A DNA stretch of 46,792 nt from Holosporales bacterium. Lineage in GTDB: Bacteria; Pseudomonadota; Alphaproteobacteria; BNTO01. The position numbers were made by a program, and so were the translations under genes. This document shows, piece after piece, positions 1-41,170 of the stretch. Every line of letters begins with the position of its first letter. The first letter of the stretch is position 1. The notes below the pieces were generated by a model, which had not been told where the DNA came from, made no database searches, and saw only the letters and a list, made by a program, of their open reading frames with translations. The DNA lies in the NCBI GenBank assembly GCA_031270515.1, contig JAISXM010000017.1, positions 1-46,792 of the forward strand, written 5' to 3'.

Positions 1-560
1 CAGATCTCCGGCCTGTTTACGGGTATAGGCATCCTGGAGCTCGCGTCCACGCAGCCTCTGACCATGAACACGCCCGCAGGCTCAGACGCACAGACGCTGA
101 GCATTAAATCCGGCAGCGCGATGTGGCTCGGCAAAGCTGGCACAGGCGCTCTGGCGACAGGCAGCGTAAGCGTGGCGGGCGTGCTGCACATTGGCGACGG
201 GACGCAGGCGACGGATAGAGGGACGCTGTCGGCTACTGGAAATATGACCGTGGGGAGCGGGGCCTCGGTTGTTATAGGGAACAACACTTTGGGGCGCGGC
301 TCCCTGCACGTTGGAGGCAAGTATACTAATAACGGGACCACGGTCGCAAATGCAATCCGCGATGATGGCGAGTTTTATATTGGTGGATTAACCGGTGACG
401 GGACGCTAACACTTAACAATATTGTAGATATGCTTATTCGTAATGCTGAGGCGGAGACGGACAGGTACATTGGCACCCTTGCTAGCGCGATTGGCACCTG
501 CATCACCAAGGATGGGCTGGGGACGCAGGTGTTCGCAGGCGACGCCGTGAATCACACGGG
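1..560 (+). repeat. Intragenic module A, copy 1 (direct repeat, 1152-bp offset to copy 2)
   Basis: Aligns codon-for-codon with 1153..1712. It includes an identical 26-mer, gcaaatgcaatccgcgatgatggcga, at 346-371 and 1498-1523, and aataacgggacc at 328-339 and 1480-1491. Confidence 0.85.
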
Positions 561-3500
561 GCGGACCCTTATTAAAGAAGGGGTCGTCATCTTAGAAACG
601 GCGTTTGGCAGCGGGGACGTTGTAAACGATACATCTTTGATCTTTGATAACGCGCTCAATACTGTCTACAACAGCACGTTTTCTGGTGGAGGAGCCGTAG
701 AGAAGCGTGGCAGCGCGACCGCACTATTAACACGCGCCAACAATGTTAGCGGGCCTACGACTGTGACAGAAGGGCGCTTGGCACTGAATGATGTGCTGGG
801 CACGGGCACTGTTTATGTCAATGCTGAAACCACATTAGAGCTGCGAAACGTAGCGAATGTTACATATGACAACGAGATCACGCTGGATGGTGTGCTCATG
901 AAGACAATGACGGGGGCAACCTCTGTTACGAACTTAATCACGCATAGCGGCGGCGACATAGACGTCTATGACGGCGTGTTGCGCGTTTTGGGGCACAGCG
1001 GGGATGCAGATTTTGCGCTGAACCACCTGAGTGTCGCATCCGATGGCACGTATGTGTTGCTGTGCGACCAGACCTGGAATAGCATAGACAGCACGGGCAG
1101 CATTAATGCATCTGGAAGCAAGCTGACGATTGTTGGAACATCTACGCCGTCGTTTATTTCCGGGATGCTGACCGGTATTGGCACGCTGGATCTGCTTTCG
1201 TTGCAGCCCCTGACCATCAACACACTGCAGGGCTCGGGGGTATATGAGCTGAACATCAACACCGGCACCTCAGTGTGGATTGGAAAAGGTGGCTCAGGCT
1301 CTCTGGATACAAACAGCGTAAATTTTTCTGGAGAGCTGCATATTGGCGACGGGGCGCTGGGTACGGACAAGGGGTGGCTCTATGTTGCGGAAGGCATGGA
1401 GGTGGAGCACGGGGCCACGCTTGTCATAGGGAACAATGCGCTAGGACGCGGAGCCCTCAGTGTTGCGGGGAAGTTTGCCAATAACGGGACCTCCATCGCA
1501 AATGCAATCCGCGATGATGGCGAATTTTATGTTGGTGGGTTGATTGGTGACGGAACGCTAACGCTTAATAACGTTGCCGACATACTTATTCACAATGCTG
1601 AGAATGAGACGGATACGTATATTGGAACAATAGTTGGGACAGGGTCAATTCTAAAAGAAGGACCTGGAATACAAGTACTGCGCACGCTAAATAGCTATAC
1701 TGGGGGCACAACTATTACGCATGGCATGCTGTGTGGCGAAATCGGCTTTAACGGAAATTTAAATATTGAGGCCGAGGGCACGTACCGACTGACGCTAACT
1801 CCGGACGAAGCTATGGATGACACAGACAGCTTAAATAAGACGCTGACGGGCTTGCTCAGCGGGTACGGAACGTTGGACTTGGCGAAAGGCTTTTTGGCAA
1901 TTGGGAACGCCACAGGGGCTCCAAGTGTAATGACGTTTAATGGCGAAATAAAGAATACAGATACGGATGAAAATAAAAATATTTTAAGAATAAATAGCGC
2001 ACAACTTGATGCTGGAACTCACGAAAACGTTAACCTTATTGGGACTATAACGTACAGCAACGTTGATGAATGGCACAGCATTGCTGGGAACTTTCCGTAT
2101 TGCAATCTCGTTCAAGACACTGGACAGCCGAAAACGTGCATCGACTTGACTCCTCACGGCTCCAGCTTTAAAACGCTGCGCAGTGCTGGCGCGATTTACC
2201 TGAGGGGCACTCACGCACTAATCATCACAAAAGGGTTTGAGTACAACGACTTTCGCAGCGTCGTATTAGCAGGCAATTGGACCGAGTACGGCACATTTGA
2301 TGGCGCAATTGTAAAGCAAGGCAATGGACGCCAGATTATTCGATTTAGCAATAAACCTAAGGATGCCCAGACTCATACCGGGCAAACGCGAGTCGAAGGA
2401 GGTACGCTGTCGGGCGTGCTGTCGCCGAATGCTCCGCTGTTTGTTGCGGCGGATGCGCTGTATCAGATTTGCTGCTATAACGGCGCGACTAATGTCACAG
2501 GCATTACGGCCCAGACGGTTGCAGGGCTGTCTGGCGAGGGCATTGTTGAGCTTGGGGACTTTGCTAACGCTAAGGACGGTTTATTAACTTTCGCATTTCC
2601 CGCAGAGACAGATGCCGCCCATAGCCGATTTGCTGGGCAGATCAAAGGGAAGACAACGCTTACGAAAACTGGAACCGGCACCCAAATTGTTTCAGCTCAG
2701 CAGGATGATTTTCATGGGTCGATTAATGTAAAAGAGGGGGAGCTCCACTTTGGAGGATTTACGTCGACAAATGGAAAGATAGTGCTCAGCGGCTCTGCTA
2801 TTTACAAGATGCTTGGTCATCAATATATAACTGCTGTTAGCTCATTATCTGCGTCAACAATATATAATTTAAATGGAAAAACATTGACCTTGTATGGAAC
2901 AAGTTCTCATGAATATTACCTTGGAAAGTTTACAGGTGGCGGAAAAATATTCATTGATTCAAAAATCCCGATTTCTGCTCATATATTCAATATAGTAGAA
3001 GACTCCTCAATTACTACACTTGAACTGAACGCGGGGTTAGTTGCTCTTGGGTTTGGAAACGATACTAGCGCATATTTGAATACCACTAATACTATTGTTA
3101 AAAGTGGGACCTTTTATGTTGGATACGATGCAAGTGGGACGCTAACCGCGAGCACCACCACTATTTCTGGCGGCACGGTCACCGTTGGCGGAGGCGCGGT
3201 CGGCTCAACGTGCTCTGGACATGGGAGCTTTACAGCCGGAAAAGTAACGATGACCGGTGGCGTTCTGAACATCGGGACAAAAGATCGCGAGGATAATACG
3301 GGAGTCGTTGCGGCGACGAGCTTTGCCCAAAGTGCAGGGCTCACCATCACGATTGGCGCTGGGGCAGGGCAGGGGGCTTTTATCGTGAGCGGCGTACTGA
3401 CATGCAGTGGAACCATTATTGCGAATAGTTTGAGCGCGGGCGAAGCTTTTTACGCTGGCTCGCTGCAGGGTGCTGGGACGGTTTACCTAAATAACGCATC

Positions 3501-6500
3501 CACACTTGTGTTGCGAGGTGCTCAATGGAGCGGCTCAATTATCGACAATACGAAGACTGCAACGGTGTTGATCCGCGACTTTGGCGAAGGGAAACAGCGG
3601 TTCGATTTAAAAGCAGGGTCGAAGTTTGGCTCTCTGCAGATTAAAGGCGGAGCAAGCGTCGTGTGCGGCTGGACTGGTGGCACGTGCGACCTCCAGTGCG
3701 TAGATATCGCTGTCGCGGCTGATGGGAGCTTGGTCATTGGGGATGCTGGGACAGGCTATATCGTATGCGACTCCATTACCAGCAGCGGCGCTTTTGACAT
3801 AGGGAGCAACAACGGCACATCAGAAGTCCTTTGTAACGGGAATATTAATGTGAATGGCGGACATTTTGGTGTTGGTACCAGTTTCTATGGAGGAAGCAAC
3901 GATCATCCTGGTGTTGGGAAACTAACATGTCAGGTGTTGAACTTAAACGCCGGCATTTTAAACATGGCAAGCGCTGGCTATGGAACGTCGTCGATTGTGT
4001 CCGTGAGCGAGTTCAACATTGCGGTAGGCGCGTCCGCATACCTTGGGCCAGCCGAGCGCAGTGGCGTAACCGCTAGCTTGGTTGTAGCAAACACTATGAC
4101 GTGCGATGGAGCGATGGAGGCTCGCGCATCTAAGTTTGAGATAAAAGGGCTAGCTGGGGCTGCAACTGGTGCAATTACTGTACACACAGGATCAAATCTA
4201 ACGATTACTCACGGGAGCGGCTGTGTGTATCACGGAACAATTTTAGGTGCCGGAAGCATCATCAAAGCGGGGGCTGGTTCGCAAATCTTTACGAACCCAT
4301 CAAGCTATGTTGGTGGGACATTTATCAATGGCGGCATGCTGTGCGGAGAGATCGGCTTTGGCGGGGAGCTTGCAATTGCGGAGAATACCACGTATCGGCT
4401 GGCAAGGAACGTGGACGGCAGCACGGACAGCACAGACAGCCTCCATGGCGATACGTTGCTGGGGGCGCTGAGCGGCTACGGAACAATGGATCTGGCTCAA
4501 GGTGACTTGGCGCTTGGGGCGACATCAGGAAGCAGCATGTCGATGACGTTTAATGGCGACATAAAGAATACGTACACGCAAAGTAATGTCGAATCAATGA
4601 TCTTGCAAATAAATAATGTGCACTTTTATGCTGGAGAGAATAATCACACAGAACTTATTGGCACAATCAAATATGGGGATAGTTCGCAGCTTAAAAGTAT
4701 TTCAGGATATTTCCCTAATTGTCATTTGTTATCCGACAGTCCTTCAGGATATTCGTGCATAAACCTAAGTGATCATGACTCAACGTTTGCTGCACTGTGG
4801 GGAGACGCTGTGCATTTGAAAGGAAGTAATACGTTAACTATCACCAAAGGGCTGGATTATGATGACTTCCGTGCCATGACGTTGTCTTGTAATTGGGCCG
4901 ACTACGGATCGTTTACGGGGGCGATTGTAAAGCAAGGGAGCGGCCGCCAAATCTTTCGCCAGCGGACTGCGCCTGAATGGCTCGATCATGATGCGCCAAT
5001 TCACACAGGCGAAACCCGCATTGAAGGCGGAACGCTGGTTGGCGTGGTGTCGCCGAATGCGCCGCTGTATGTGGCAAACGGGACGACGTATCAGGTCAGT
5101 TGTTACGATGGCGATGACAACATGTCGCAAACCACAGCGCAAACAGCAAAAGGCTTGCGTGGAAGCGGCTTTGTTAAGCTGGCGGACGTAGGGCGGCCAA
5201 TTGACGTGTTTACGATAGACGTGGATTCAGGCATAGAGGAGCAGTTTAGTGGGGAAGTTTCGGGGAATGGAACTCTGCAAAAAATTGGATTGGGGAACCA
5301 AGTTATATCGGGGGCGTTGTTCAACCCAGTCGTCGAAGTTCTAGAGGGTGAGCTCACGCTGATCTCTATCATACAAGGGCCCAATACGGTCGACATCGCG
5401 CACAACGCGACATTGCGTGTCACTGGCGGCTTGCGCAATGCGACGGTCAATATGGAGCCAGACGCTTCGTGCTTTGAGATCGGGACTCAAAACGTCGCAA
5501 TTAACTTAAATGGAGGTGGCGTAGTTAAGACAATCACCCCAAGTCGCATGCTTTGTAATATGCAGGCAGCGCTGGGGGCGGAAATCCAAACAAATCATGA
5601 ACTGCGAATCGATGGGACGTTACGTGAAACGAATGTGATTAACAAAACTGGGGATGATGTACTTGTACTAGGCGAAATGTGTGCGCGCAAGTCTAGCTCT
5701 ATTAGTGTCAAGGAAGGGGTATTGTGCATATCAAATAAAGCGGACATGGGAGACAGTACATACCTAGATATACTGTCGCCTGCATCCGTTGATATGTATT
5801 CGACTCAAACGTTTGCCTCTCTATCAGGAGACGGCACAATTCGCCTGCATAAACAAAACATCTACACGTTGCTTGATATAATATATTCAGGGCACATCAT
5901 TGGCGAAACAACCAGTAACGTGATCGGCGCGAGTGGGAATGCGACGTTCTCAAATGAGGCGCTGTCCGAATTCTTTGGATATCTGGAGGCAAAAGACTCC
6001 GGCAATGTCGTAATTGACGGCGTAGTTGATCCGCGGTTGAAACTGCGTATTTTGGACAATTCACAAATAAAAGTGATCGGACCACGGACGTTTGAGGGGT
6101 TAAAGGGGAGCGGACTCTTAATCGGAGACGGAAATACGCTGACGATTCATTCTGACAACAGACAGATCTTTACGGGAGACTTTGCGGCGACTGGCGTGGA
6201 ACTTTCTGGCGATCAGACATTCCTCTGGGGTGGAGGCATCAAGCATCACACCCAGGGCATTGTACTGAAGGATAAGGCTCAGTTGATTATTGACCGGGGG
6301 GTCGTGTTACATAGCCACGAGCGCATCCACTTGCAGGATGAGACGTCCAGCGTGTGGTTCGAAAGCGCGCAAACGATTGCAGGCATTACAGGAAACGGTG
6401 TTTTGTATGCATCAAATGTAGATATGGTGCTTTATGAAGACGTGGTGTTTGCTGGGGACATTGTGGGCGATGGCGTGATTACGTTGACGGCAAGTGAGCC

Positions 6501-9500
6501 TGTTACGTTTACTCTTTCTGGCGATAGGAAGCGGTCGTTTAAGGGGACGTTTTTGACAGATAGCAATGTTACGTTGGTGTATAACCAAGAGATATTTGAT
6601 CCAACGGTAATTATACATGGACAAAAGCAAAGCTTAACTGGAAATAGAGCACTGCATAATGAGCATTTGTCCGAAAACTTAGAGCTGAACGGCTACACCG
6701 TACAAGTCACAAGCACAGAAGACATCTTAAACAGCGCATGGATCAAGGGCCCAGGCACTGTGAACATTGATTGCGCAGGCACGTTTACGATCAACAGGGG
6801 GATACAATCTGGCTCCAATGGGGTCGTGTTTAATGTCGAGCGCGGCACTGTCATCGCAGCGGCGGAATCGCGCCTAAAAGGGGCCACGGTAAATCTGGTG
6901 GGAAGTGGAACAACGCTTGAGATTCAGGGGGATCTGGTCGCTGATGGCGCGGATGTGCTGATTAATGCGGATACGGGAATACTGCGCTTCACTGGGCCGG
7001 AAGAGATCGATACGGTTGCCGATATTGCAATGAACAAGCCGGTGCGCATTCAAACCATGACAAACGTTGTGTTTAGTGGCGATATCACTGGCGCGGCTGA
7101 CGTCTCTAAAGAGGGGCCGGCCACGTTAACCATCAACGGCACAGATGCATTGGCACACACGTGGGTCGTGAAAGAAGGGCGCTTGGATGGGGATGCATTC
7201 GCGGATGGCAGCCGGTTTGAGCTGTTGGATGGAACAACGCTGGCGCCGTCTTCGTTGCTGGTTGACGCAGTAAATAGTGATAGCGCGACGGCTCGCTTCA
7301 TTACTCACGAAGGATTAACACTTACTGGTCAGAGCGCATACTCCGGAATATTTGACAACGACGGCGGGTTCACTTTGACCGGGGAGCTGAGCATTAATGG
7401 TCCATCGCGCGATTGCGGAGGATTTGTGCTAAATGAGGGGAAGTTGAACGCAAATACAGACATACTGTGTGCGTTGAGCGGCAATGGATACGTAGCTAGC
7501 GACCATAACATTACTTTAACTGGGGCGGGCAATAGTTGGACTGGCATCTGGCAAGGGCGCGGAGATATCGTAGTTAACGGCGAATCGCAAGCTTTGGATG
7601 GGAAGTTTAGATCTCACACCGGAAAGTACTACATAAACACTGTGTCGAATCGGTTAGGACCAAATGCCGAGCTGGGGGATGGCTACATTTTCATCAGCAG
7701 CGCCGGAGAGCTGTTGGCGTCTTGCTCTGAGAACATTAACAGCCCCGTCGTCGTGAATGGTGGTGCGTTTGGCGCGTTTGCGACTATGACGCTTGGGTAT
7801 CGGATCATCGTAAACGAGAGCGCTCGCATTGTCGTGCAAGACGAGAGCGTGCTGACGTTGGCCCAGCGCCTGGAGGGGCAATCTATTGTGACGAAAGAAG
7901 GGCTTGGCGTGCTGAGGCTTTTGGCGGAGTACAGTGACCCAATTGACTTGCGGATCAATAGCGGCGCCGTCGAAGTGCATGGCACGCTGCACGCGTTGAC
8001 GCAGATTGATGTTGCGGACACGTTGCACATAATGAGCCCTCAGAAGATCGAGTTCCTGAGTGGTGGTGGACTTGTGGATATACAGAGTGACCTGGCGCTG
8101 GAGAGCTCGCGTGAGACCGTGTTTGACGGGCAGCTAACAGGCACAGGGCGGTTGGTTTTACATGACAACATGCAAGTGTCGCTCTCTCGGAGCGATTGGA
8201 ATAACGGCTTCGTTGGGCAGATCTATACGCACCAAGGTTCGATATTGCACATTCATGGGAATCAGACGCTCAGTCAAATCGAAGGCTTCGGTACGTTTGA
8301 ATTTGGGGGCGCCGATTTGAGTGTCGTCATGAATGCATCGCAAACGTTTTATGGCGTGCTGGAAAATGTTGGCGCAATGACGTTTGAAGGTGCGTATACG
8401 TTCAACATGAGGCATGCCATTGCGTGCAGTAGTCTTAGCGTCGCGGAGGGAAGCACGTTTGTTGCAGAGCGTGAGATCGAGTTCAACGAATTAGTTGCGG
8501 ACGGCGAAGTGGAATTCCGACAGCTTGCCCAGGGCGCGCGCATCAGCGGGGGCGGCATCATTCGCGCGATCGAGGATTTTATTCTGAATGCGTCCGAAGA
8601 CTGCGTTTTTGACGGAGGCATTATTGGTGCAAGGAATATAAATATTGATGGCGCGAATGTGACGTTTAACAATGTCGAGTTGTTTACTGGCACATTTAAC
8701 ATCGGCAGCGTAGACATCACGTTTGGGGAGAATGCAAAGTTAAACAAGAACCTTGTTTTAAATTTAAGCGCCGGTGCAACGGTTACCTTGAATGCGGATG
8801 AAACCATATCTGACATCATCGGCCACGGAACCGTAATCTCTAGCGCCTCCATGACCCTGCTGCAGTTGACCGATTGTTTGCACAAGTTTGAAGGGCTAGT
8901 CGCGTGTAGCGAGCTTATCGTGGATTCCAATAGCCCCTGGTATTGGCAATACAGCGGAGATCCTAACTTTGAAGGGACGCTGGGTGCCACCGCAAAATCG
9001 CACGTGGTCTTAGACGTGGGGAGTCTGGCGCACTCGACGTTGGCGTGCGATGGGTTGCTGGAGGTCATGCAAAACGACATAGCCGTTGGCTCATTAACAG
9101 GCAGCGGGCACTTTAAATATTTGAATCGATGCATATTTGAGGCGGATTCTGATTTTGCCGGCATCATCGAAGGCTCAGGGCCGCTGGAAGTGCGCAGCGG
9201 GTGCTTTACTTGGAGCGGGCCAAGTAAGTCGCCAACTGGTTTAGTGATTGTATCGACATTTGAGGCAAATGCTTGCTTAGATCAAAATGAACACATCGTG
9301 TTCAATGCCGGCAGTGTGCTGCTGTTGGGTGTGGATCACGTGTTTTCATCCTTGGAAGGGAGCGACGGAATCATTGACGCGAGGCAAAACGGGGTCGCCA
9401 TAAACGGTTCTATGGCGTTCCTAGGTACAGTGCAAAATGCGGGTTATTTAAATATGCGTGGGGAAATATATGTCCAAGCGCTAGAAGGGTGCGGAAATAT

Positions 9501-11487
9501 AAACATTGAGAATGATTCAGAGTGGCAATTTTATGTGGATACTTCTATTTTTGGCATAACGCTTGAATACCCAAGTAGCATTCTCGTGTACTACACATAC
9601 GCGGTCCTAACACTGCAGCACATCGCAGGCTCAGGACGTGTGCAGCTCAATGACATAGGGACTGTACACATAACAGGCAACCAAACGTCGGCGTTTGATG
9701 GCGACTTTGCGTCAGGGAAGTTGCACATGTATGAGCAAAGTCGTTTAGTGTGGGGAGGACGTGGCATCAAGTCGTTGGTTGGAGAAATAGTTTTACATGA
9801 GCAAAGTATACTTGAAGTAACTGATACCGCGGCTTTGAACGAGTTCGAGCAAATATATATTGAGCCTGACGCAAGTTTGAAGTTGCATGGGTGGCAGAAG
9901 GCTCGACCAATAAATGGCTCAGGACATCTTGAATTCGATAAATTAACTATTAATTTGGACGGGGACTTTACGTTGGATGCGAATATTATAAGTTCGGGCA
10001 GTCTTACATTTATGAGTTCGGAGCCGCGCGAAGTACACATTGGGTCATCCAATCCATATTTCACTGGAAGCATATATAACATGGGGCAATTCCTTGAGTT
10101 AGACGGCACGTGTTATCTGAACAATACGTCACTTGTGTTGCAAGACGAAGCTACCTTGATTTTGCATTCGGACGCAACGCTAAATGCGAACTCTGCGCTA
10201 GTGTCAGCTGGGGCGCGCAATGAACTGGTGCTGATGGGGACGAACATGAGCTTGCCGCAGGTTATCTTTGTCGCAAATGATTCGGAGCTTATAATTAATG
10301 TAGATCATAGTGATGTCACAATAACCGGGGATATTCAAGGCACGTCTATTATCACGAAAAATGGTGCGAAAACTTTACGTATTGCGAGTGATAACAACTT
10401 TGGTGGCGTGTATAACGTGCAATATGGATGCATTGAGTTTGACCAATTGATTGTGGCGTCATTGACGTCTCTGAAGCTGGCTGAGGACACGAGCGCGTTT
10501 GCAAATAATGATTTGGTTTTGCACGATATGTCAGGGCTTGGGAGCTTGTTGTTGAGCGACCACGTTACCGCGAGCCTGTACCTATCTGCGGACTTTAGTA
10601 CAAATACGGCGATTCGCGGAGGGTGCTTTGAGGTGCTGAGCGAACTTGGGCAGGAGCACAACGTGACGTTGTTGTCTGACGTGGTAAGCCCTGAGACATT
10701 AACGATTGGCCAGAACATAGTGTGTTCGGCGCCTAATCTTGAAAATGACGTGATCGTTAACATCGCGGGGTATTTGTTTTTGGAGGAGGAGCGGACGTTT
10801 GCGTCGATGAATGTTACGGGGTTTGCCCTTGTTCCTACGATCACGATTCGAAATACGTCGCAGATGTCTACTTTTTCGAGCGGAGTCATTCAAGCCGATG
10901 TGCTGGACTATGACTGTAGCAATGCTTTGTTCAACTTGGTCGGCGACGCAAAAATGAGACTACACGAATTTAATATTCACGCGGGCAAGGTTTGTGCCTC
11001 TTTGGGGACTTTGATTGACACAGATGTGGTGCGCCTCGGCAGCGACTGTACGCTGCAAGCTGTGGGGGATATCAATTACTTTGAGACTTCTGGGTGCATT
11101 ATCCCGGAGCGCAGCAATGTGGAGCCTGGGGAGTTGCCGTATGGCGTGCTCCGAGTCAAAGAGCTGCATGCGCAAGTTGGGGCGGTTGCGCTGATGAGGC
11201 TGAGCTGCTTGATGGATAACGCGCTGAACGGGGTCATCCACATTACGGAGAGTGCGGAGGGGCTGGGCAATTTGTCCATTGTGTTGGAGAGTGATGATCC
11301 TCTTTCGCTGCGCAATAATGTGTTTCCGTTGATGTCCTTTCCTGCGGGATATGCGGGGGATGAATTGCCGGAGATTGCGATGGACCGCGGGATATGTCCT
11401 TTGATTGAGGCTCCGAGTAGCGCGTTTCAGCTGGACGTGTTGCTAGACAGTTTGGTGCTTATTACAAAAGACTTTCAGCTGAAATAG
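1..11487 (+). CDS. Giant PATR-repeat, beta-helix/adhesin-like (autotransporter-passenger-like) protein; 5' end lies outside the window
   Basis: The ORF track gives 64..11487 (3807 aa), but frame 1 is open from nt 1. The 21 upstream codons (QISGLFTGIGILELASTQPLT) align with the internal segment FISGMLTGIGTLDLLSLQPLT about 1152 nt downstream, so the CDS continues upstream. At least 10 copies of the PATR-type motif are present, e.g. ILKEGPGIQVLRTLNSYTGGTTITHGML, IIKAGAGSQIFTNPSSYVGGTFINGGML, LTKTGTGTQIVSAQQDDFHGSINVKEGEL, VSKEGPATLTINGTDALAHTWVVKEGRL. Composition is G/T/N/S/V-rich and beta-strand-like. Stop at 11485-11487. Confidence 0.9.
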   Translation, partial: QISGLFTGIGILELASTQPLTMNTPAGSDAQTLSIKSGSAMWLGKAGTGALATGSVSVAGVLHIGDGTQATDRGTLSATGNMTVGSGASVVIGNNTLGRGSLHVGGKYTNNGTTVANAIRDDGEFYIGGLTGDGTLTLNNIVDMLIRNAEAETDRYIGTLASAIGTCITKDGLGTQVFAGDAVNHTGRTLIKEGVVILETAFGSGDVVNDTSLIFDNALNTVYNSTFSGGGAVEKRGSATALLTRANNVSGPTTVTEGRLALNDVLGTGTVYVNAETTLELRNVANVTYDNEITLDGVLMKTMTGATSVTNLITHSGGDIDVYDGVLRVLGHSGDADFALNHLSVASDGTYVLLCDQTWNSIDSTGSINASGSKLTIVGTSTPSFISGMLTGIGTLDLLSLQPLTINTLQGSGVYELNINTGTSVWIGKGGSGSLDTNSVNFSGELHIGDGALGTDKGWLYVAEGMEVEHGATLVIGNNALGRGALSVAGKFANNGTSIANAIRDDGEFYVGGLIGDGTLTLNNVADILIHNAENETDTYIGTIVGTGSILKEGPGIQVLRTLNSYTGGTTITHGMLCGEIGFNGNLNIEAEGTYRLTLTPDEAMDDTDSLNKTLTGLLSGYGTLDLAKGFLAIGNATGAPSVMTFNGEIKNTDTDENKNILRINSAQLDAGTHENVNLIGTITYSNVDEWHSIAGNFPYCNLVQDTGQPKTCIDLTPHGSSFKTLRSAGAIYLRGTHALIITKGFEYNDFRSVVLAGNWTEYGTFDGAIVKQGNGRQIIRFSNKPKDAQTHTGQTRVEGGTLSGVLSPNAPLFVAADALYQICCYNGATNVTGITAQTVAGLSGEGIVELGDFANAKDGLLTFAFPAETDAAHSRFAGQIKGKTTLTKTGTGTQIVSAQQDDFHGSINVKEGELHFGGFTSTNGKIVLSGSAIYKMLGHQYITAVSSLSASTIYNLNGKTLTLYGTSSHEYYLGKFTGGGKIFIDSKIPISAHIFNIVEDSSITTLELNAGLVALGFGNDTSAYLNTTNTIVKSGTFYVGYDASGTLTASTTTISGGTVTVGGGAVGSTCSGHGSFTAGKVTMTGGVLNIGTKDREDNTGVVAATSFAQSAGLTITIGAGAGQGAFIVSGVLTCSGTIIANSLSAGEAFYAGSLQGAGTVYLNNASTLVLRGAQWSGSIIDNTKTATVLIRDFGEGKQRFDLKAGSKFGSLQIKGGASVVCGWTGGTCDLQCVDIAVAADGSLVIGDAGTGYIVCDSITSSGAFDIGSNNGTSEVLCNGNINVNGGHFGVGTSFYGGSNDHPGVGKLTCQVLNLNAGILNMASAGYGTSSIVSVSEFNIAVGASAYLGPAERSGVTASLVVANTMTCDGAMEARASKFEIKGLAGAATGAITVHTGSNLTITHGSGCVYHGTILGAGSIIKAGAGSQIFTNPSSYVGGTFINGGMLCGEIGFGGELAIAENTTYRLARNVDGSTDSTDSLHGDTLLGALSGYGTMDLAQGDLALGATSGSSMSMTFNGDIKNTYTQSNVESMILQINNVHFYAGENNHTELIGTIKYGDSSQLKSISGYFPNCHLLSDSPSGYSCINLSDHDSTFAALWGDAVHLKGSNTLTITKGLDYDDFRAMTLSCNWADYGSFTGAIVKQGSGRQIFRQRTAPEWLDHDAPIHTGETRIEGGTLVGVVSPNAPLYVANGTTYQVSCYDGDDNMSQTTAQTAKGLRGSGFVKLADVGRPIDVFTIDVDSGIEEQFSGEVSGNGTLQKIGLGNQVISGALFNPVVEVLEGELTLISIIQGPNTVDIAHNATLRVTGGLRNATVNMEPDASCFEIGTQNVAINLNGGGVVKTITPSRMLCNMQAALGAEIQTNHELRIDGTLRETNVINKTGDDVLVLGEMCARKSSSISVKEGVLCISNKADMGDSTYLDILSPASVDMYSTQTFASLSGDGTIRLHKQNIYTLLDIIYSGHIIGETTSNVIGASGNATFSNEALSEFFGYLEAKDSGNVVIDGVVDPRLKLRILDNSQIKVIGPRTFEGLKGSGLLIGDGNTLTIHSDNRQIFTGDFAATGVELSGDQTFLWGGGIKHHTQGIVLKDKAQLIIDRGVVLHSHERIHLQDETSSVWFESAQTIAGITGNGVLYASNVDMVLYEDVVFAGDIVGDGVITLTASEPVTFTLSGDRKRSFKGTFLTDSNVTLVYNQEIFDPTVIIHGQKQSLTGNRALHNEHLSENLELNGYTVQVTSTEDILNSAWIKGPGTVNIDCAGTFTINRGIQSGSNGVVFNVERGTVIAAAESRLKGATVNLVGSGTTLEIQGDLVADGADVLINADTGILRFTGPEEIDTVADIAMNKPVRIQTMTNVVFSGDITGAADVSKEGPATLTINGTDALAHTWVVKEGRLDGDAFADGSRFELLDGTTLAPSSLLVDAVNSDSATARFITHEGLTLTGQSAYSGIFDNDGGFTLTGELSINGPSRDCGGFVLNEGKLNANTDILCALSGNGYVASDHNITLTGAGNSWTGIWQGRGDIVVNGESQALDGKFRSHTGKYYINTVSNRLGPNAELGDGYIFISSAGELLASCSENINSPVVVNGGAFGAFATMTLGYRIIVNESARIVVQDESVLTLAQRLEGQSIVTKEGLGVLRLLAEYSDPIDLRINSGAVEVHGTLHALTQIDVADTLHIMSPQKIEFLSGGGLVDIQSDLALESSRETVFDGQLTGTGRLVLHDNMQVSLSRSDWNNGFVGQIYTHQGSILHIHGNQTLSQIEGFGTFEFGGADLSVVMNASQTFYGVLENVGAMTFEGAYTFNMRHAIACSSLSVAEGSTFVAEREIEFNELVADGEVEFRQLAQGARISGGGIIRAIEDFILNASEDCVFDGGIIGARNINIDGANVTFNNVELFTGTFNIGSVDITFGENAKLNKNLVLNLSAGATVTLNADETISDIIGHGTVISSASMTLLQLTDCLHKFEGLVACSELIVDSNSPWYWQYSGDPNFEGTLGATAKSHVVLDVGSLAHSTLACDGLLEVMQNDIAVGSLTGSGHFKYLNRCIFEADSDFAGIIEGSGPLEVRSGCFTWSGPSKSPTGLVIVSTFEANACLDQNEHIVFNAGSVLLLGVDHVFSSLEGSDGIIDARQNGVAINGSMAFLGTVQNAGYLNMRGEIYVQALEGCGNINIENDSEWQFYVDTSIFGITLEYPSSILVYYTYAVLTLQHIAGSGRVQLNDIGTVHITGNQTSAFDGDFASGKLHMYEQSRLVWGGRGIKSLVGEIVLHEQSILEVTDTAALNEFEQIYIEPDASLKLHGWQKARPINGSGHLEFDKLTINLDGDFTLDANIISSGSLTFMSSEPREVHIGSSNPYFTGSIYNMGQFLELDGTCYLNNTSLVLQDEATLILHSDATLNANSALVSAGARNELVLMGTNMSLPQVIFVANDSELIINVDHSDVTITGDIQGTSIITKNGAKTLRIASDNNFGGVYNVQYGCIEFDQLIVASLTSLKLAEDTSAFANNDLVLHDMSGLGSLLLSDHVTASLYLSADFSTNTAIRGGCFEVLSELGQEHNVTLLSDVVSPETLTIGQNIVCSAPNLENDVIVNIAGYLFLEEERTFASMNVTGFALVPTITIRNTSQMSTFSSGVIQADVLDYDCSNALFNLVGDAKMRLHEFNIHAGKVCASLGTLIDTDVVRLGSDCTLQAVGDINYFETSGCIIPERSNVEPGELPYGVLRVKELHAQVGAVALMRLSCLMDNALNGVIHITESAEGLGNLSIVLESDDPLSLRNNVFPLMSFPAGYAGDELPEIAMDRGICPLIEAPSSAFQLDVLLDSLVLITKDFQLK
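1153..1712 (+). repeat. Intragenic module A, copy 2
   Basis: See copy 1. At protein level, ...HIGDGxxxTDxGxL...VIGNNxLGRGxLxVxGKxxNNGTxxANAIRDDGEFYxGGLxGDGTLTLNN...NAExETDxYIGT is shared. Confidence 0.85.
1650..2560 (+). repeat. Intragenic module B (about 300 aa), copy 1
   Basis: Homologous to 4260..5190 with an offset of 2610-2628 nt. Shared blocks: GMLCGEIGF, YRL, TDSL, LSGYGT(L/M)DLA, MTFNG(E/D)IKNT, LIGTI(T/K)Y, AIVKQG(N/S)GRQI, HTG(Q/E)TR(V/I)EGGTL, SPNAPL(F/Y)VA. Confidence 0.85.
4260..5190 (+). repeat. Intragenic module B, copy 2
   Basis: See copy 1. For example, ggcatgctgtg(t/c)gg(c/a)ga(a/g)atcggcttt occurs at 1723 and 4333, and tcgccgaatgc(t/g)ccgctgt at 2422 and 5050. Confidence 0.85.
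6088..6590 (+). repeat. Intragenic module C (divergent), copy 1
   Basis: Protein-level similarity to 9613..10107. Shared blocks: G-SG, F-GDFA, L-WGG-GIK, G-IVL, I-G-G-L, SEP, F-G-. Confidence 0.6.
9613..10107 (+). repeat. Intragenic module C, copy 2
   Basis: See copy 1. LQHIAGSGRVQL...FDGDFASGKL...LVWGGRGIKSLVGEIVLHEQ...INGSGHLEF...SSEPREV...FTGSI. Confidence 0.6.
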
Positions 11488-11652: not shown

Positions 11653-13806
11653 ATGAAAAATATTCCGCTGCTTATGATCGCAATGTTGGCCGTAGAGGGA
11701 GGCGCGTCAAGTCAGGAACTCGCAGTTGCAGTATCTCCTGCTGATTCTGATCAAAATTCCGATCCAATAAATGGACTTCAGAACGAAATAATAAAAAAGA
11801 TCGGTATCATAAAGAACGAGCTGCTACAACCTCTTCGCCTGCATATAGAAATTCCCGAGACAACTAGTCGTATTCCTGATCTGGAAAATGAAGCAAAATC
11901 TATAGTACAGCTGTGGAAAGAAGCCAATATAATGTGTTCTATGTACGCGGTGAATCAGTTTAGAAGACTCCATGCTGAAGGGCCAAGCTCATGGCTCAGG
12001 GACCGAAACAATCCGTGGCGACCACTGTGGGACTCGACTATCCGTCCTGAGGACTTAAATACTGGCTTAGATTTGGTCGCATATTTGAGGGAGGCGTGGA
12101 TAAAGTGGGGATCGAGCATAGAACAAGCGATGGCAAATAATAACACTTATAGTGTGTTTAATGTACTGAATATTTTGAAGAAATGGAATGGAGATCCGAC
12201 TAGAACGATAAGCGCAAAGCTTGATGAAATTTCAGATAATATACACGCGTTTTATGACGAGAAATCTCTTAAAAAAGTATCAGGCTTGCTCGACATCTTT
12301 AGTACAATAGTTAACACTTATAACGATCGATATGAACAAAGAGCTCAACTTTTAAAAGACAAATGGGCTGTAGACATGAGCCAAGATCAAGGCTTTGTTG
12401 AATTTAACGACCGCATTCGTTTGGCAAAACAAAGGAGCGAACAGCTTTCGTCCGCGGAACAACTTGATCGCAGAGGTGATGAAGCACAGCTTCCGCCCGA
12501 CGTATCTACAAAAGCATTCTTTGATATGGTCGAAAAATCACAAGACGCTCGCATTGCAATACAGCACAAATTTGAGGCGCTTGCAAATTCTGTTCAGCCA
12601 ATTAGATTCATCCATCTAGGTATTTTGCCAATTGAAGTTGCCGTGAATAGAATTTTGGATGCAGTAAAATGTGCACGGACACTATCTAATGAAAAAAACA
12701 GGAATTCCTCTTTAAGAGATAAGCTTTTTTTAGCACATAATCGTGACCTACCGAAATTGGTGAGTTATCTGCAATCGGAGGATCGTCTAAAGCAATTCGA
12801 GCCGATGGTACCCGTTCTCAATGAGATAAACGGAGGTCTTGGTCTTATAAAAGGGATGTTGCGTAATGAACCTGTGTCTATAACTAGTAGATGTCTTAGA
12901 TATGGAACAGAATCTCTAAATGCTATGCACAATATCGTTGCATTGAGGCGCGATGTAATGAACACTAAGGCACGATTGCAAAACTTTAATCCACATTTTT
13001 CAGCAGAGGCGACACAACAGCTAATTCAGAGCAGTCCCAAAGAGTCAAGTCAATATTCGTGGCTATGTAATCACGAGCATCCTGATCTCGATATACAGAG
13101 CAGTGATCCTCATAGGAAACAAATATTAGCCGTTAGGAAAGGGAAGTGGATACCTTCAGCTGGGGTAAGTCCTAGCGCAGAGGTCGCAATGGTTTTATTA
13201 GAGGAATGGTTCGCTAGATGGCAGCGCAGCATCATAGAGAGTACAACCCTATGTTCAACGCAGCTCTGTAACCTACTTAACACTCTAGAATTGGAAAAAG
13301 AACTCCCTGTCGTTACGATTGAAGCAATCATTGATGGGATATCAGCGAATCTGGGGCAATTTGATGACGTAAATTCTCTCCGTTCGGTTTTAGATAATGT
13401 CAGTTTTGTAAGCAAGACTCCTAGAGGAAACAAGAATCCTAGAGGAAATTTGAGGAATGCAATTAGTCAAGAGTTAAAAAGTCCTCCGGATTACTTGCAA
13501 GCGCCTATACGTTGGCAAAATGCAAGGACGAAAAAGGTAGATGCGAGCAAAAATCAGGTGTACATCAACGCGATGGCGTTTTTGAATGACTTGAAACAAA
13601 CCTGCGGAGGCGCACTACCAGAATTATTATCGAATGAAATTAACGAGAAACAAAAATTACTTTTTTCAATACAGGATAAATATATCGATTTATTCAATAC
13701 GTTTAAGCCAATTGCATTAGATCGCTCACGTTTTGATGGAGTGAAGCAAATACTTGATGAGTTTGTGATAGACAATAAGATTGAGTTGCTGTACCCATGC
13801 TTCTAA
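11653..13806 (+). CDS. Hypothetical secreted protein (717 aa), helical, with a two-fold internal duplication
   Basis: ATG ORF with an N-terminal signal-like segment MKNIPLLMIAMLAVEGGASS. GGTAGG lies about 10 nt upstream of the ATG. Two homologous halves are visible: LVAYLREAWIKWGSSIEQAM...LDEISDNIHAFYDEKSLKKVSGLLDIFS versus VAMVLLEEWFARWQRSIIEST...IDGISANLGQFDDVNSLRSVLDNVSF. I recognise no known domain. It is AT-richer than the flanking giant gene. Confidence 0.75.
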   Translation: MKNIPLLMIAMLAVEGGASSQELAVAVSPADSDQNSDPINGLQNEIIKKIGIIKNELLQPLRLHIEIPETTSRIPDLENEAKSIVQLWKEANIMCSMYAVNQFRRLHAEGPSSWLRDRNNPWRPLWDSTIRPEDLNTGLDLVAYLREAWIKWGSSIEQAMANNNTYSVFNVLNILKKWNGDPTRTISAKLDEISDNIHAFYDEKSLKKVSGLLDIFSTIVNTYNDRYEQRAQLLKDKWAVDMSQDQGFVEFNDRIRLAKQRSEQLSSAEQLDRRGDEAQLPPDVSTKAFFDMVEKSQDARIAIQHKFEALANSVQPIRFIHLGILPIEVAVNRILDAVKCARTLSNEKNRNSSLRDKLFLAHNRDLPKLVSYLQSEDRLKQFEPMVPVLNEINGGLGLIKGMLRNEPVSITSRCLRYGTESLNAMHNIVALRRDVMNTKARLQNFNPHFSAEATQQLIQSSPKESSQYSWLCNHEHPDLDIQSSDPHRKQILAVRKGKWIPSAGVSPSAEVAMVLLEEWFARWQRSIIESTTLCSTQLCNLLNTLELEKELPVVTIEAIIDGISANLGQFDDVNSLRSVLDNVSFVSKTPRGNKNPRGNLRNAISQELKSPPDYLQAPIRWQNARTKKVDASKNQVYINAMAFLNDLKQTCGGALPELLSNEINEKQKLLFSIQDKYIDLFNTFKPIALDRSRFDGVKQILDEFVIDNKIELLYPCF

Positions 13807-15217: not shown

Positions 15218-17200
15218 TTGGAGACAGCTTTGAGCGATACATCGAAAGTAAATATATGGCGAATTGCCAGTTTGTTCATAGTGTTTATTGGGAACAAAAC
15301 TGGAGGCGAAACTGCTGACGCGGGGGGGACTTTGTCTCGTGCTGCAAAGTTTCGTGCGGCGACTGCGCTTTTGGATTCGAAATTGCAGGAGCTTCGGAAG
15401 CAGAATGATCTCATAAAGCAATGGCAGGAAGACGAAGCGGTGCGCCAACGGGGCGATTTTTCGGTGAGCTCGAGTCGCCGCAGGGGGGGGGCTTCGCGTC
15501 GGAATAGGGACGGGACGTCGCCCGGGGATGGCGCGATGCCTACAGATGAAGCATGCGAAATTGAGGACGTGGTAGAGCGATCCGTACTTGATTTGGATGC
15601 GGCTGACCAATCCATACTTGATCCGGATGCTGTGGACACAGGAATTGGCCCGGACGCGGCTGACACAGGACTAGACCTGGATGTTGTGGAGCGATCAATA
15701 CTAGACCCGGATGCGGCTGACATTAGTGCGATTGCCGCGGATGCCGGTGCGTCTGATGACCTGACCCGTGGTGCCACAGAGCCAAATTCGCTATTAAATA
15801 CATCGGCGGCAGATGAGCAAGGACGCAACAACCTCCTCGAAGCGCCTCCCCCCGCCGCCAGGGTGCCGTTGACTCAGCGCCGCCAAATGCGATCGCAGGA
15901 GTCTATTGATCGGGCAAATCGCAGGCAGCGCCTCAACGACGAGGCGACAAGTTCGCTAGCAGATGCGGTGGCGCTGTCATCAAGGGTTAGGGAATTGCAA
16001 TCCGGTTATCCCAACATAACTCAGGGGACGGCTCTGCAATCCGGTTATCCCAGTGTCACCCAGAGTGCGGCTCTGCGAAGTGGGCGCTCTCTTGCTCGCG
16101 TGGTTGCACGCAGGGGGGCGGCGTCGGCGTCGGCGCGGGTAGCTCGCCAACTTGTGCAGGTGAGCGGCTTAGGCCAGGAAAATGTGCGCGCATTAGCCCA
16201 AACGATACTGCTCGAGCTGGAGCAAGTGCACGAGCCCTCCGCCGCCGCTACCACAGAGGCAGTTGCGGAGTGTGTATTGCGCAATTTCGTCCAGTTAATC
16301 GGAGGGGATGTGCGCGCCGCATTGAGCGACAGTACGCAAGTAGCGCATATAAATGAATTGTTCCAATATTTATTGGAGCAAGTGTTGATTGTTTTTCCTG
16401 ATGTTGAGATTGATAAAAAAGTGCTATTTATTGAGTTTTTTAAGAAATGGCAGCACCTAGTTGCAAATAAAAGGAGGGGGTTTAACCTAGATTATTCGCC
16501 AACGGCGCGCCAAGCGTATAAGTTGGAGCACGAAAGGGCGTCTGTCTTGCAGTCGGAGGATGCGCGTCGGCTACGTCAGGAGGAGCTGTCAGATCGCTGG
16601 AGGAACAGGTATGGCATGGACGCGGATCACACATCGAGCAACCCGATTGAGTCTATGCATTCGAGGATAAGCGCTATGCGGTCGAATCGTTCTTCCTTGA
16701 TTGAAAAAATCGAAATGAGGCACTCCTCGGATGAAGTGTTCTTTAAGCCTGAGGACCGGCTGTTTATTCCAAAGGGGAGGACCTTCGATCACAGAAACTT
16801 CGCAGGGAAGACGCCTATAGGCAATGCGAAGAGTAGCGAATTGAATGATGGACAAGGACAGAGGGAGGCCGCGTCGCCTCGTGGGTTGGCGCGCTCATCT
16901 GTTAATCCATCGAAGCAGGGGCTTGCATCCAAGTCCGAGGCTGTTCAAGCGAATGACGAAGTTGAGATGATTGAGGGGCAAGGTCCTCGCAACGTGGAGG
17001 GCGCGCCATATGTAAATCCGCAGCACGACGACTCTTACAATGTGGATGGAAAACCATTGTTGCGAAAAAAACGCCAATATAGCAATGAGCCAACCGAAGA
17101 CGCAGAAGAGTATACGTCCAACCCGCAATACTTAGCGGCGTCATTCACGGCTTCGCCATTTGATGATCCTGCGTTTGTAGATGTGACGTTTGCAGGATAG
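15218..17200 (+). CDS. Acidic tandem-repeat protein (660 aa), function unknown; start codon uncertain
   Basis: The long ORF starts at TTG 15218, and the first in-frame ATG is about 105 codons in. A hydrophobic N-terminal stretch (IWRIASLFIVFIG) is present. There are degenerate xxILDPDAAD repeats (15569..15760) and a 39-bp tandem LQSGYPxxTQxxA x2 (15995..16084). A G9 tract lies at 15483..15491, inside the reading frame. Confidence 0.7.
   Translation: METALSDTSKVNIWRIASLFIVFIGNKTGGETADAGGTLSRAAKFRAATALLDSKLQELRKQNDLIKQWQEDEAVRQRGDFSVSSSRRRGGASRRNRDGTSPGDGAMPTDEACEIEDVVERSVLDLDAADQSILDPDAVDTGIGPDAADTGLDLDVVERSILDPDAADISAIAADAGASDDLTRGATEPNSLLNTSAADEQGRNNLLEAPPPAARVPLTQRRQMRSQESIDRANRRQRLNDEATSSLADAVALSSRVRELQSGYPNITQGTALQSGYPSVTQSAALRSGRSLARVVARRGAASASARVARQLVQVSGLGQENVRALAQTILLELEQVHEPSAAATTEAVAECVLRNFVQLIGGDVRAALSDSTQVAHINELFQYLLEQVLIVFPDVEIDKKVLFIEFFKKWQHLVANKRRGFNLDYSPTARQAYKLEHERASVLQSEDARRLRQEELSDRWRNRYGMDADHTSSNPIESMHSRISAMRSNRSSLIEKIEMRHSSDEVFFKPEDRLFIPKGRTFDHRNFAGKTPIGNAKSSELNDGQGQREAASPRGLARSSVNPSKQGLASKSEAVQANDEVEMIEGQGPRNVEGAPYVNPQHDDSYNVDGKPLLRKKRQYSNEPTEDAEEYTSNPQYLAASFTASPFDDPAFVDVTFAG
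15483..15491 (+). repeat. Homopolymeric G9 tract inside the 660-aa ORF
   Basis: agg ggg ggg g(ct) encodes RGG(A) within SSRRRGGASRR. A second G7 tract lies at 15322-15328. Both are upstream of the first in-frame ATG. Confidence 0.9.
15569..15760 (+). repeat. Degenerate acidic tandem repeats (114-bp unit built from about 27-30-bp subrepeats)
   Basis: VVERSVLDLDAADQSILDPDAVDTGIGPDAADTGLDLD is followed by VVERSILDPDAADISAIAADAGASDD. gt(g/t)gt(a/g)gagcgatc occurs at 15569 and 15683. Confidence 0.8.
15995..16084 (+). repeat. 39-bp tandem repeat x2 plus a partial unit
   Basis: ttgcaatccggttatcccaacataactcaggggacggct (15995-16033) and ctgcaatccggttatcccagtgtcacccagagtgcggct (16034-16072), followed by ctgcgaagtggg. 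Confidence 0.85.
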
Positions 17201-40407: not shown

Positions 40408-41019
40408 TCATGAGACTTCCCCCAGTTCTTGGTATATTGTTTTAAACCTGTCTATTGTGTTGCGTAGTGCTTTTATGAACTGCTGAAGATATATTTCTTT
40501 TTTAGCCATGACTAAACAGTTACCTACGCGCAGCATACGATATGCCTTTCCAATCGATATTGAAAACGAGTCTGAAGTCTCTCCTCTTTTATACACTTGA
40601 TACTTCACATTTACTGCAGCGAGTTGATCATGCAAGTTAAACGCACAGAAGGTTCTCTGCAGAAGCATTACATGATTTGCGATAGTAGTCGCATACCAAT
40701 CAGAACCATAGGGACGTTTTTTGTTATAATGTTCGTTTACGAATGCTACTACGTCATCGTCGCTAGCGTTGATGCGTTGTATGTACCGAATCCCCTCCTC
40801 CCAGACTTCGGTTACGACGACTTTTCCGTCCACAGTTGAGTATAGTTCCGAATTCATATAACGTAACCATTCAGGAGTGAAGTTTAACTGCAATGCATCA
40901 GCTGGAGCCTTAAGTGGAGCTGAACTAAAAAGTGGAGCTGGGCCATAAAGTGGACATCCTTGCACGCATTGAGAGAGCGTAGCTAGGGCGATACACATGC
41001 CTAAGGATTTGATTGTCAT
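40408..41019 (-). CDS. Small secreted or lipoprotein-like hypothetical protein (about 203 aa)
   Basis: The ORF track extends to 41076 (222 aa). However, Met-20 (ATG at 41019-41017 on the minus strand) is preceded by GGAG 6 nt upstream and starts a signal peptide, MTIKSLGMCIALATLSQCVQGC. Alternative starts are 41031 and 41076. No recognisable domain. AT-richer than its neighbours. Confidence 0.65.
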   Translation of the reverse strand: MTIKSLGMCIALATLSQCVQGCPLYGPAPLFSSAPLKAPADALQLNFTPEWLRYMNSELYSTVDGKVVVTEVWEEGIRYIQRINASDDDVVAFVNEHYNKKRPYGSDWYATTIANHVMLLQRTFCAFNLHDQLAAVNVKYQVYKRGETSDSFSISIGKAYRMLRVGNCLVMAKKEIYLQQFIKALRNTIDRFKTIYQELGEVS

Positions 41020-41170
41020 AAAAGACTCCATAATAAAAAAACGCTCATTCTTTAATGTATCAGACGTGCGCAGCAATAGTCAACAGCATAAATCACGAAA
41101 AAAACGATTGACTTCCAATGCAAAGTAAGTGACACTACATCTTGGAACGAGGGGCAGAAAGCTCATCTGC

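Follow-up and report, generated by a model that had tools for sequence, protein, structure and literature searches.

The window analysed here, 46,792 bp long, is the whole of contig JAISXM010000017.1, and it opens with giant1, a gene for a very large, acidic protein that carries PATR repeats. giant1 and its few relatives form a hitherto uncharacterised family of giant β-solenoid proteins, probably of the envelope or surface. Frame 1 is open from base 1 to its only stop (Table 1). As the earlier note on this DNA had claimed, the gene runs off the 5' edge of the window and encodes more than 3807 aa, the length counted from the first ATG at position 64; its N-terminus was lost to the assembly. 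The first 60 nt of the window had no exact match in the genome or metagenome contig collections, and exact-protein look-ups of the neighbouring 717-aa protein, of the window's nucleoside diphosphate kinase (NDK) and of P0019 found no match either. P0019, an entry of the representative library, is giant1 itself, called from an internal Met at aa 41.

Table 1. Features of giant1 and of the neighbouring genes (positions in the window)
Feature	Position	Strand	Description and basis
giant1 gene	1..11487	+	3828 codons in window, stop 11485-11487, 5' end cut by contig end
PATR-bearing N-terminal half of giant1	508..5373	+	PF12951, TIGR02601; positions by regular expression
Internal duplication in giant1	4..1749	+	aa 2-202 vs aa 386-583, 56% identical; chunked self-BLASTP, E = 2e-62
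Second large duplicated module of giant1	1495..5355	+	aa 499-915 vs aa 1362-1785, 44-47% identical
Family-defining conserved C-terminal 1200 aa of giant1	7885..11484	+	aa 2629-3828; no Pfam model; phmmer
Terminal 450 aa of giant1	10135..11484	+	AlphaFold2 model: right-handed β-solenoid, end cap, no barrel
Last 32 aa of giant1, GICPLIEAPSSAFQLDVLLDSLVLITKDFQLK	11389..11484	+	final β-hairpin of the cap; DSSP and AlphaFold2 pLDDT
717-aa orphan protein next to giant1	11653-13806	+	signal-like N-terminus MKNIPLLMIAMLAVEGGASS
660-aa open reading frame	15218-17200	+	no family match; highly charged, low-complexity
giant2, 7574 aa	17472-40196	+	no Pfam match; Leu/Ala-rich (helical); hydrophobic N-terminus MFLAKRHFVSRFAAVAALWLGCDDIVHA
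222-aa orphan open reading frame	40408-41076	-	signal-like N-terminus; contains ...CIALATLSQCVQGC
422-aa orphan protein	41342-42610	+	signal-like N-terminus; weak Beta_helix match PF13229 (E = 9e-4, below cut-off)

The PATR repeats of giant1 are genuine. The protein matched both PF12951 in Pfam (E = 2.4e-20, 72.7 bits against a cut-off of 27, six stretches) and TIGR02601 in NCBIfam (E = 1.6e-12, 46.9 bits against a cut-off of 19.85, seven stretches), so that, with at least one repeat of ∼30 residues above the curated cut-off, it counts as a PATR protein. The earlier note had described it as packed with such repeats, which overstates their density: the seven clear units, of the form K-x-G-x-G-x-Q-[IV], begin at aa 170, 552, 772, 889, 1422, 1644 and 1761 (nt 508, 1654, 2314, 2665, 4264, 4930 and 5281), all of them confined to aa 170-1791, and beyond these there are only four degenerate units (aa 1882, 2370, 2632 and 3453). 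The same part of the protein bears two large duplications, the second of which is also conserved in the homologs P0001, P0002 and L003 (alignment A1). We infer that this variable N-terminal half, with its duplicated modules, is the interaction end of the protein. No enrichment of the GGA[ILV]/FxxN motifs of Pmp proteins was found in giant1.

Neither giant1 nor the DNA that follows it encodes a recognisable translocator. The autotransporter barrel models PF03797 and TIGR01414 gave no match to giant1 even at E≤1 in the Pfam and NCBIfam scans, and the same holds for the TPS domain, the inverse-autotransporter barrel and RTX repeats; PF00353 was not matched, and the motif GG.G.D is absent from all 3828 aa. 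The protein ends in ...ITKDFQLK and hence not in an aromatic residue, as had been noted before, and among its relatives the last residue varies (R, F, H, K or P) and is not consistently aromatic. In the 35 kb of the window downstream of giant1 we found no gene for a barrel, a TpsB protein, an ATP-binding cassette (ABC) exporter or membrane fusion protein (MFP), TolC or another component of a type I secretion system, which bears out the statement that no barrel or two-partner gene follows.

The C-terminal end of giant1 was modelled with AlphaFold2 from an alignment of 11 sequences (A2), and this model superseded a single-sequence prediction of the last 600 aa with a predicted local distance difference test score (pLDDT) of 45. 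In the A2-based model the last 450 aa form a regular solenoid of short strands (57% strand, 3% helix) with a mean pLDDT of 90.4 and a predicted TM-score of 0.85. When it was compared with the PDB by Foldseek, the top neighbours were type Va passengers (EspC, IgA1 protease, Hbp, pertactin, Hap and EspP, with probabilities of 0.75-1.0, and also Ssp and Ag43); the TM-scores were low (0.2-0.4), as expected for long curved solenoids. None of the 48 Foldseek matches in the PDB was an outer-membrane barrel, and a profile search of the PDB gave only weak passenger matches, through a PATR-like segment. By model and by structural comparison giant1 has the β-helix of a type Va passenger; neither the profile scans nor the structure prediction placed a barrel in its last 300 aa, where a solenoid was modelled.

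The family to which giant1 belongs was delineated by an exhaustive HMMER search (phmmer) of 1.84 billion representative proteins with the last 1200 aa of giant1 as query. It returned 12 matches: ten true relatives of 730-6327 aa and one marginal match (P0030), with E-values down to 1e-189, and P0019. A word-indexed homolog search with the last 800 aa had given 0 matches, a false negative of its prefilter, as the exhaustive search found the relatives and giant1 itself. In nine of the ten relatives the best stretch reaches to within ∼25 residues of the C-terminus (for example, 5138-6321 of 6327, 2304-3499 of 3499, 194-1395 of 1396 and 688-1632 of 1643); in P0029 it stops at 3676 of 3896, and the last 450 aa of this protein align with the family tail in A2. 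Because the matches of the relatives extend to their own C-termini, the barrel-less state is a family trait: the lack of a translocator is stable across its members and does not stem from a truncation in this contig alone. PATR was the only domain matched in the family members scanned, usually weakly, and was not found in P0023 and P0028. A barrel match in Pfam was seen in none of the eight homologs scanned, nor was a TPS, inverse-autotransporter or RTX match seen in any member scanned (for P0020 this was taken from precomputed annotation).

A further homolog was found by a genome scan with the conserved internal module (A1). It lies at locus L003 in the complete, 1.33-Mb genome of Alphaproteobacteria bacterium LL52 (CP165730.1) and consists of two open reading frames (ORFs) of 1741 and 1222 aa, the second of which aligns over nearly its full length with the last 1200 aa of giant1 (BLASTP, E = 2e-71). 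A metagenome scan with a closer alignment subset (A3) gave no relatives, and we found no literature on LL52 or CP165730. The named relatives all come from Holosporales or unclassified Alphaproteobacteria; they include MDR2464446.1 and MDR1208507.1 (Holosporales bacterium, 'hypothetical protein') and GHS91367.1 (Alphaproteobacteria bacterium), and two family members in JGI are named 'autotransporter-associated beta strand protein'. The NDK of the window is 82, 78, 74, 72 and 71% identical to NDKs labelled 'MAG: Holosporales bacterium', which places the source organism in the Holosporales. An origin in Chlamydiae or another PVC bacterium, to which Cys-rich giants and PATR might have pointed, is rejected on the strength of the NDK and of the taxonomy of the family. 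Locus L012, which carries the 3499-aa family member adjoining pgsA and ndk, encodes an NDK 78% identical to that of the window. The family thus appears, from the sequences at hand, to be confined to Holosporales-type alphaproteobacterial symbionts. Holosporales are obligate intracellular alphaproteobacterial symbionts, mostly of protists.

The very end of the protein had been read differently in the earlier note, which called the tail similar to that of a type I secretion substrate on the grounds that 23 of the last 32 residues belong to the set L/D/A/V/T/S/I/F. The count is correct, but it does not exceed the protein's own background: these residues make up 58.7% of the whole of giant1 (binomial P = 0.09), and 261 of the 3797 internal 32-aa windows score as high as the tail (≥23/32). 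Over the last 50 aa the set reaches 64% compared to 59% protein-wide (74th percentile), and the residues K/H/P/M/W/C, which are expected to be depleted in type I signals, are instead enriched (16% compared to 10% protein-wide, 87th percentile), as they are over the last 50-60 aa. The tails of the homologs are no richer in the first set than their own bodies (0.50-0.62 and 0.54-0.61, respectively), and they are likewise enriched in the second. Moreover, the tail is folded and conserved. In the model it consists of a short helix and then the last two strands, FQLDVL and DSLVLI, at a pLDDT of 90-95 over the block, and the last ∼60 residues follow a family pattern, F.LM[ST]LP...LP.IDF..G.C.LIE.P..SL.L...D.L.L, with a short variable end. 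On this model the alternation of L, D, V, S and I in the tail is what a β-hairpin looks like. The C-terminal tail of giant1 is thus best read as a structural, folded end-cap. Its reading as a signal for type I secretion, the novel part of the earlier claim, does not hold. A basic tail of the type IV secretion kind was also considered and rejected: in giant1 the last 20 aa carry a net charge of -1, and across the family values from -3 to +3 show no consistent pattern.

At the other end of the protein, a hydrophobic start resembling a signal peptide was present in all six homologs whose 5' ends are intact. P0027 (1643 aa) begins with MKTLCLIASLCLSVAVTSNA, followed by TQ after an AxA-type site, and its ATG is preceded by AGGAG. 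When P0026 is extended to an upstream ATG, again with AGGAG, it begins with MKIRSATLFVCLPILSSSVQA, followed by TN after an AxA-type site; P0153 (1676 aa), a member of the same cluster, has the length predicted by this extension. P0001 begins with MHKLALLLGAAAPVVG followed by C, which gives the lipobox VVG/C, and the first ORF of L003, P0020 and the extended P0024 have weaker but comparable segments. The maximal Kyte-Doolittle hydropathy, KD(11), of the six N-termini is 1.6-2.9, mostly above the 95th-99th percentiles of the interior of giant1 (1.8 and 2.2). These signal-like N-termini argue for Sec export rather than one-step export by a type I system. P0001 itself (L001, 758-3037; Logan SRR10605906) is a 759-aa relative of the internal module. 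It has a coiled-coil region before the solenoid module and ends soon after a PATR unit, and it may be a short lipoprotein paralog or a fragment.

In LL52 the break between the two ORFs of the homolog coincides exactly with a perfect (CCTCT)x12.4 repeat (L003, 13474-13535 of CP165730.1). The frame of the second ORF runs through the repeat into a PATR-like segment (VVKTGNGILAF), and the loss of one repeat unit would fuse the two ORFs. A comparable repeat is absent from giant1 and from five other homologs. From its sequence the CCTCT repeat looks like a slipped-strand switch of the phase-variation kind that is typical of surface proteins; the CTCTT repeats of the Neisseria opa genes are a comparable switch.

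The genes around the family members do not suggest a partner. Downstream of giant1 lie the genes for the 717-aa protein, an AI-2E transporter, the 660-aa protein and giant2, then small ORFs, ndk, pgsA and two membrane proteins. No translocator gene was found beside the family genes in the six related loci (L003, L007, L008/L009, L010, L011 and L012), where the neighbours are unrelated housekeeping genes: rnpA-like and bioY in L003; pntB/alanine symporter and tsaD/mnmA in L007; argS, a SPOR protein and DUF167 on one side and era/tyrS or carD on the other in L008 and L010; sua5, ppiD and degP in L011; and pgsA-ndk in L012. A TpsB gene in particular was found on neither side in L003, L007, L008, L010 and L011, nor downstream in L012, the only side visible there. 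When the other proteins of the window were compared with loci L001-L012 by tblastn, no conserved partner gene emerged, and only ndk and pgsA were shared, both with L012. In L012 (10511-11648) the stop codon of the giant is followed by pgsA and ndk, which are convergent with it, within ∼120 bp. In the window, giant1 and ndk-pgsA lie ∼31 kb apart (11488-42858, with the 717-aa, AI-2E, 660-aa, giant2, 222-aa and 422-aa genes between them), and ndk-pgsA are inverted as well, which points to a rearrangement or to an insertion that brought in giant2.

Several of these intervening genes are unusual in themselves. giant2 contains 16 CxxC motifs (often CxxC[NE]) and 11 CC pairs, several of them ∼38 aa after a CxxC, a spacing that suggests very degenerate repeats of ∼250-400 aa; near its C-terminus there is a low-complexity region rich in Gly, Ala and Asp. 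No homolog of giant2 was found in loci L001-L012, to which the search was confined, and giant2 may be more unusual than the giant1 finding. The 660-aa ORF has repeated acidic 'ILDPDA(A/V)D...' motifs and Arg-rich stretches and is possibly a secreted, effector-like protein. The 717-aa, 222-aa and 422-aa orphans have no homolog near other family members, and scanning the window for Rfam families and tRNAs gave no match.

We think it reasonably probable that giant1 is a Sec-exported, barrel-less β-helix protein of the envelope or surface. The observation made in the earlier note, an autotransporter-passenger-like β-helix giant with no barrel in cis, no adjacent partner gene and an unresolved route across the outer membrane, stands, apart from the weight given to tail composition and the density of repeats. 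In the proposed layout of the family, a right-handed β-helix with PATR rungs has an N-terminal part that varies and is prone to duplication and ∼1200 conserved aa towards the C-terminus, and the family is predicted to end in a folded β-helix cap in place of a linker and a 12-stranded barrel. An N-terminal signal peptide, predicted in the homologs and presumed in giant1, would direct the protein to Sec; the solenoid would then fold, its stable end being the conserved C-terminal core, and the protein, placed at the envelope or surface, may serve the intracellular symbiont as an adhesin or in host interaction. Any passage through the outer membrane would have to use a machine encoded elsewhere, as none is encoded in cis in the window or in the six related loci.

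Several points weigh against this interpretation. The signal peptides were recognised by visual inspection and a hydrophobicity rule of thumb rather than by SignalP; two of the six, those of P0020 and the extended P0024, are weak or atypical; and for giant1, whose own N-terminus is cut off, the signal is deduced from the homologs. The structural model comes from an alignment only 11 sequences deep, and the taxonomic placement from one marker gene (NDK) together with the distribution of the family. The location of every family member is a prediction only. A PATR β-helix without a way across the outer membrane is also an incomplete mechanism, and a barrel, a TpsB protein or a type I system acting in trans may be encoded elsewhere in the genome.

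Of the other explanations, retention fares best, though we regard it as unlikely: the protein would have no dedicated outer-membrane secretion and would be stored in the periplasm or envelope and released at host invasion, like the periplasmic proteins of Holospora. The predicted Sec signals of the homologs and the lack of an outer-membrane translocator in cis fit this, and Holospora has kept Sec while its other secretion pathways decayed and releases periplasmic proteins of 89, 63, 39 and 15 kDa during invasion (PMC5911502). However, there is no sign that the present organism has an infectious form, the β-helical PATR proteins characterised so far are on the surface or secreted, and the phase-variation-like repeat of LL52 fits an exposed protein better. 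It is slightly more doubtful still that the barrel-less passenger is placed on or outside the cell with neither a cis barrel nor TpsB, by the non-standard type VI system, by pilus/secretin genes or by a translocator acting in trans on the C-terminal cap; the first two are the main conserved envelope machines of Holosporales. If such a route were real, the PATR solenoid with its conserved 1200-aa C-terminal domain would represent a new class of secretion substrate.

We consider it improbable that giant1 is a two-partner (type Vb) exoprotein with a divergent N-terminal TPS domain and a TpsB protein encoded elsewhere. TpsA proteins are giant, Sec-dependent, barrel-less β-helices with the architecture of giant1, weak Foldseek matches to the secretion domains of HMW1 and EtpA were obtained (E = 0.6-2), and the N-terminus of giant1 is out of view. 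In the homologs with intact N-termini, however, the signal peptide leads straight into a PATR-type solenoid: PF05860 (TPS) is absent from the first ORF of L003, P0027, P0026, P0024 and P0001, and PF11924, the N-terminal barrel, was not matched in homologs with intact N-termini either (the N-terminus of giant1 being cut off from both scans). In addition, no gene for TpsB or a POTRA protein adjoins any of the six loci, and the structures closest to the model are passengers of type Va rather than TpsA proteins.

We hold it to be no more probable that giant1 is a remnant or one part of a classical autotransporter, whose barrel was lost (leaving the protein stuck in the periplasm or non-functional) or is supplied in trans by a separate gene. 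The fold and the PATR repeats are those of type Va passengers, degraded autotransporter genes are frequent in the reduced genomes of symbionts, and the LL52 copy is in two ORFs. Against decay speak the length and integrity of the ORFs (no stop within 3828 and 6327 codons) and the position of the LL52 split on a reversible pentanucleotide repeat rather than at a random lesion. About 10 members with <50% mutual identity, giant1 included, end at the same conserved cap, and therefore we see a stable ancestral design here rather than a set of independent truncations.

One-step export as a type I substrate, in which an ABC/MFP/TolC machine would read the uncleaved C-terminal ∼50 aa, is very improbable given the predicted Sec signals of the homologs, the folded and conserved tail, the lack of RTX repeats (with no GGxGxD motif) and the lack of ABC/MFP genes in the window and the six related loci, even if giant1 is acidic and very large like some type I adhesins and type I systems are encoded in some relatives among the Holosporales (Hepatincola, some Caedimonadaceae and Paracaedimonadaceae; PMC9992710).

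A Sec-exported, barrel-less β-helix protein can be set beside four known systems. The type Va PATR passengers (IcsA/VirG, Ssp and BmaC; Doyle et al. 2015, as cited in PMC12636525) have the same right-handed β-solenoid with PATR rungs, and they resemble the giant1 family in the conserved, stable C-terminal end of the helix and in the Sec-type signal, seen here in the homologs. In contrast to them, giant1 has no linker, no 12-stranded C-terminal barrel and no terminal aromatic residue, its family has a conserved 1200-aa C-terminal region for which there is no Pfam model, and its members far exceed these passengers in length (≥3828 aa and up to 6327 aa). As giant1 lacks the barrel that defines the class, it should not be filed as type Va. 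TpsA proteins (FHA, HMW1 and EtpA) share with the family a giant, Sec-dependent β-helix without a barrel of its own, but the family has no detected TPS domain and no adjacent TpsB gene. The giant type I adhesins of the LapA/SiiE type and the effectors of Rickettsiales (the TRP and Ank proteins of Ehrlichia) are large, acidic and barrel-less like giant1, whereas giant1 has no RTX or Ig-like repeats and no ABC/MFP neighbours, its tail is folded and conserved, and its homologs have predicted signal peptides.

The closest parallel in kind is found in Omnitrophota, whose giant PATR proteins have up to 38 copies of PF12951 and signal peptides but no barrel calls (bioRxiv 10.64898/2026.06.07.730766). 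Like them, the proteins of the giant1 family are very long, bear PATR repeats and predicted signal peptides and show no β-barrel. Unlike them, the family appears confined to small-genome, Holosporales-like symbionts and is defined by its own C-terminal domain, and sequence kinship between the two groups is undetectable outside the PATR motif. Barrel-less PATR proteins are already common in the databases, under the name 'autotransporter-associated beta strand repeat-containing protein'. They are also frequent in Planctomycetota and Verrucomicrobiota. Most Holosporales encode Sec, incomplete type IV pili and a reduced type VI system, while type I, type IV and type V systems occur in some lineages only (PMC9992710, PMC11909080). 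A 2025 review of Holosporales, in which adhesins and autotransporters are not mentioned, sees the most credible delivery route for host-interaction molecules in the type VI system (PMC11909080). For these 'professional' intracellular symbionts, whose host-interaction molecules are almost unknown, the family supplies candidates of up to 6327 aa, and one candidate surface protein, the LL52 copy, sits behind a phase-variation-like repeat. How barrel-less PATR giants get to the cell surface is a general problem without a solution so far, and the family offers a clean, conserved example of it. Thus, what is new here is a lineage-restricted family of a known but mechanistically unexplained, barrel-less PATR kind, which is useful rather than startling.

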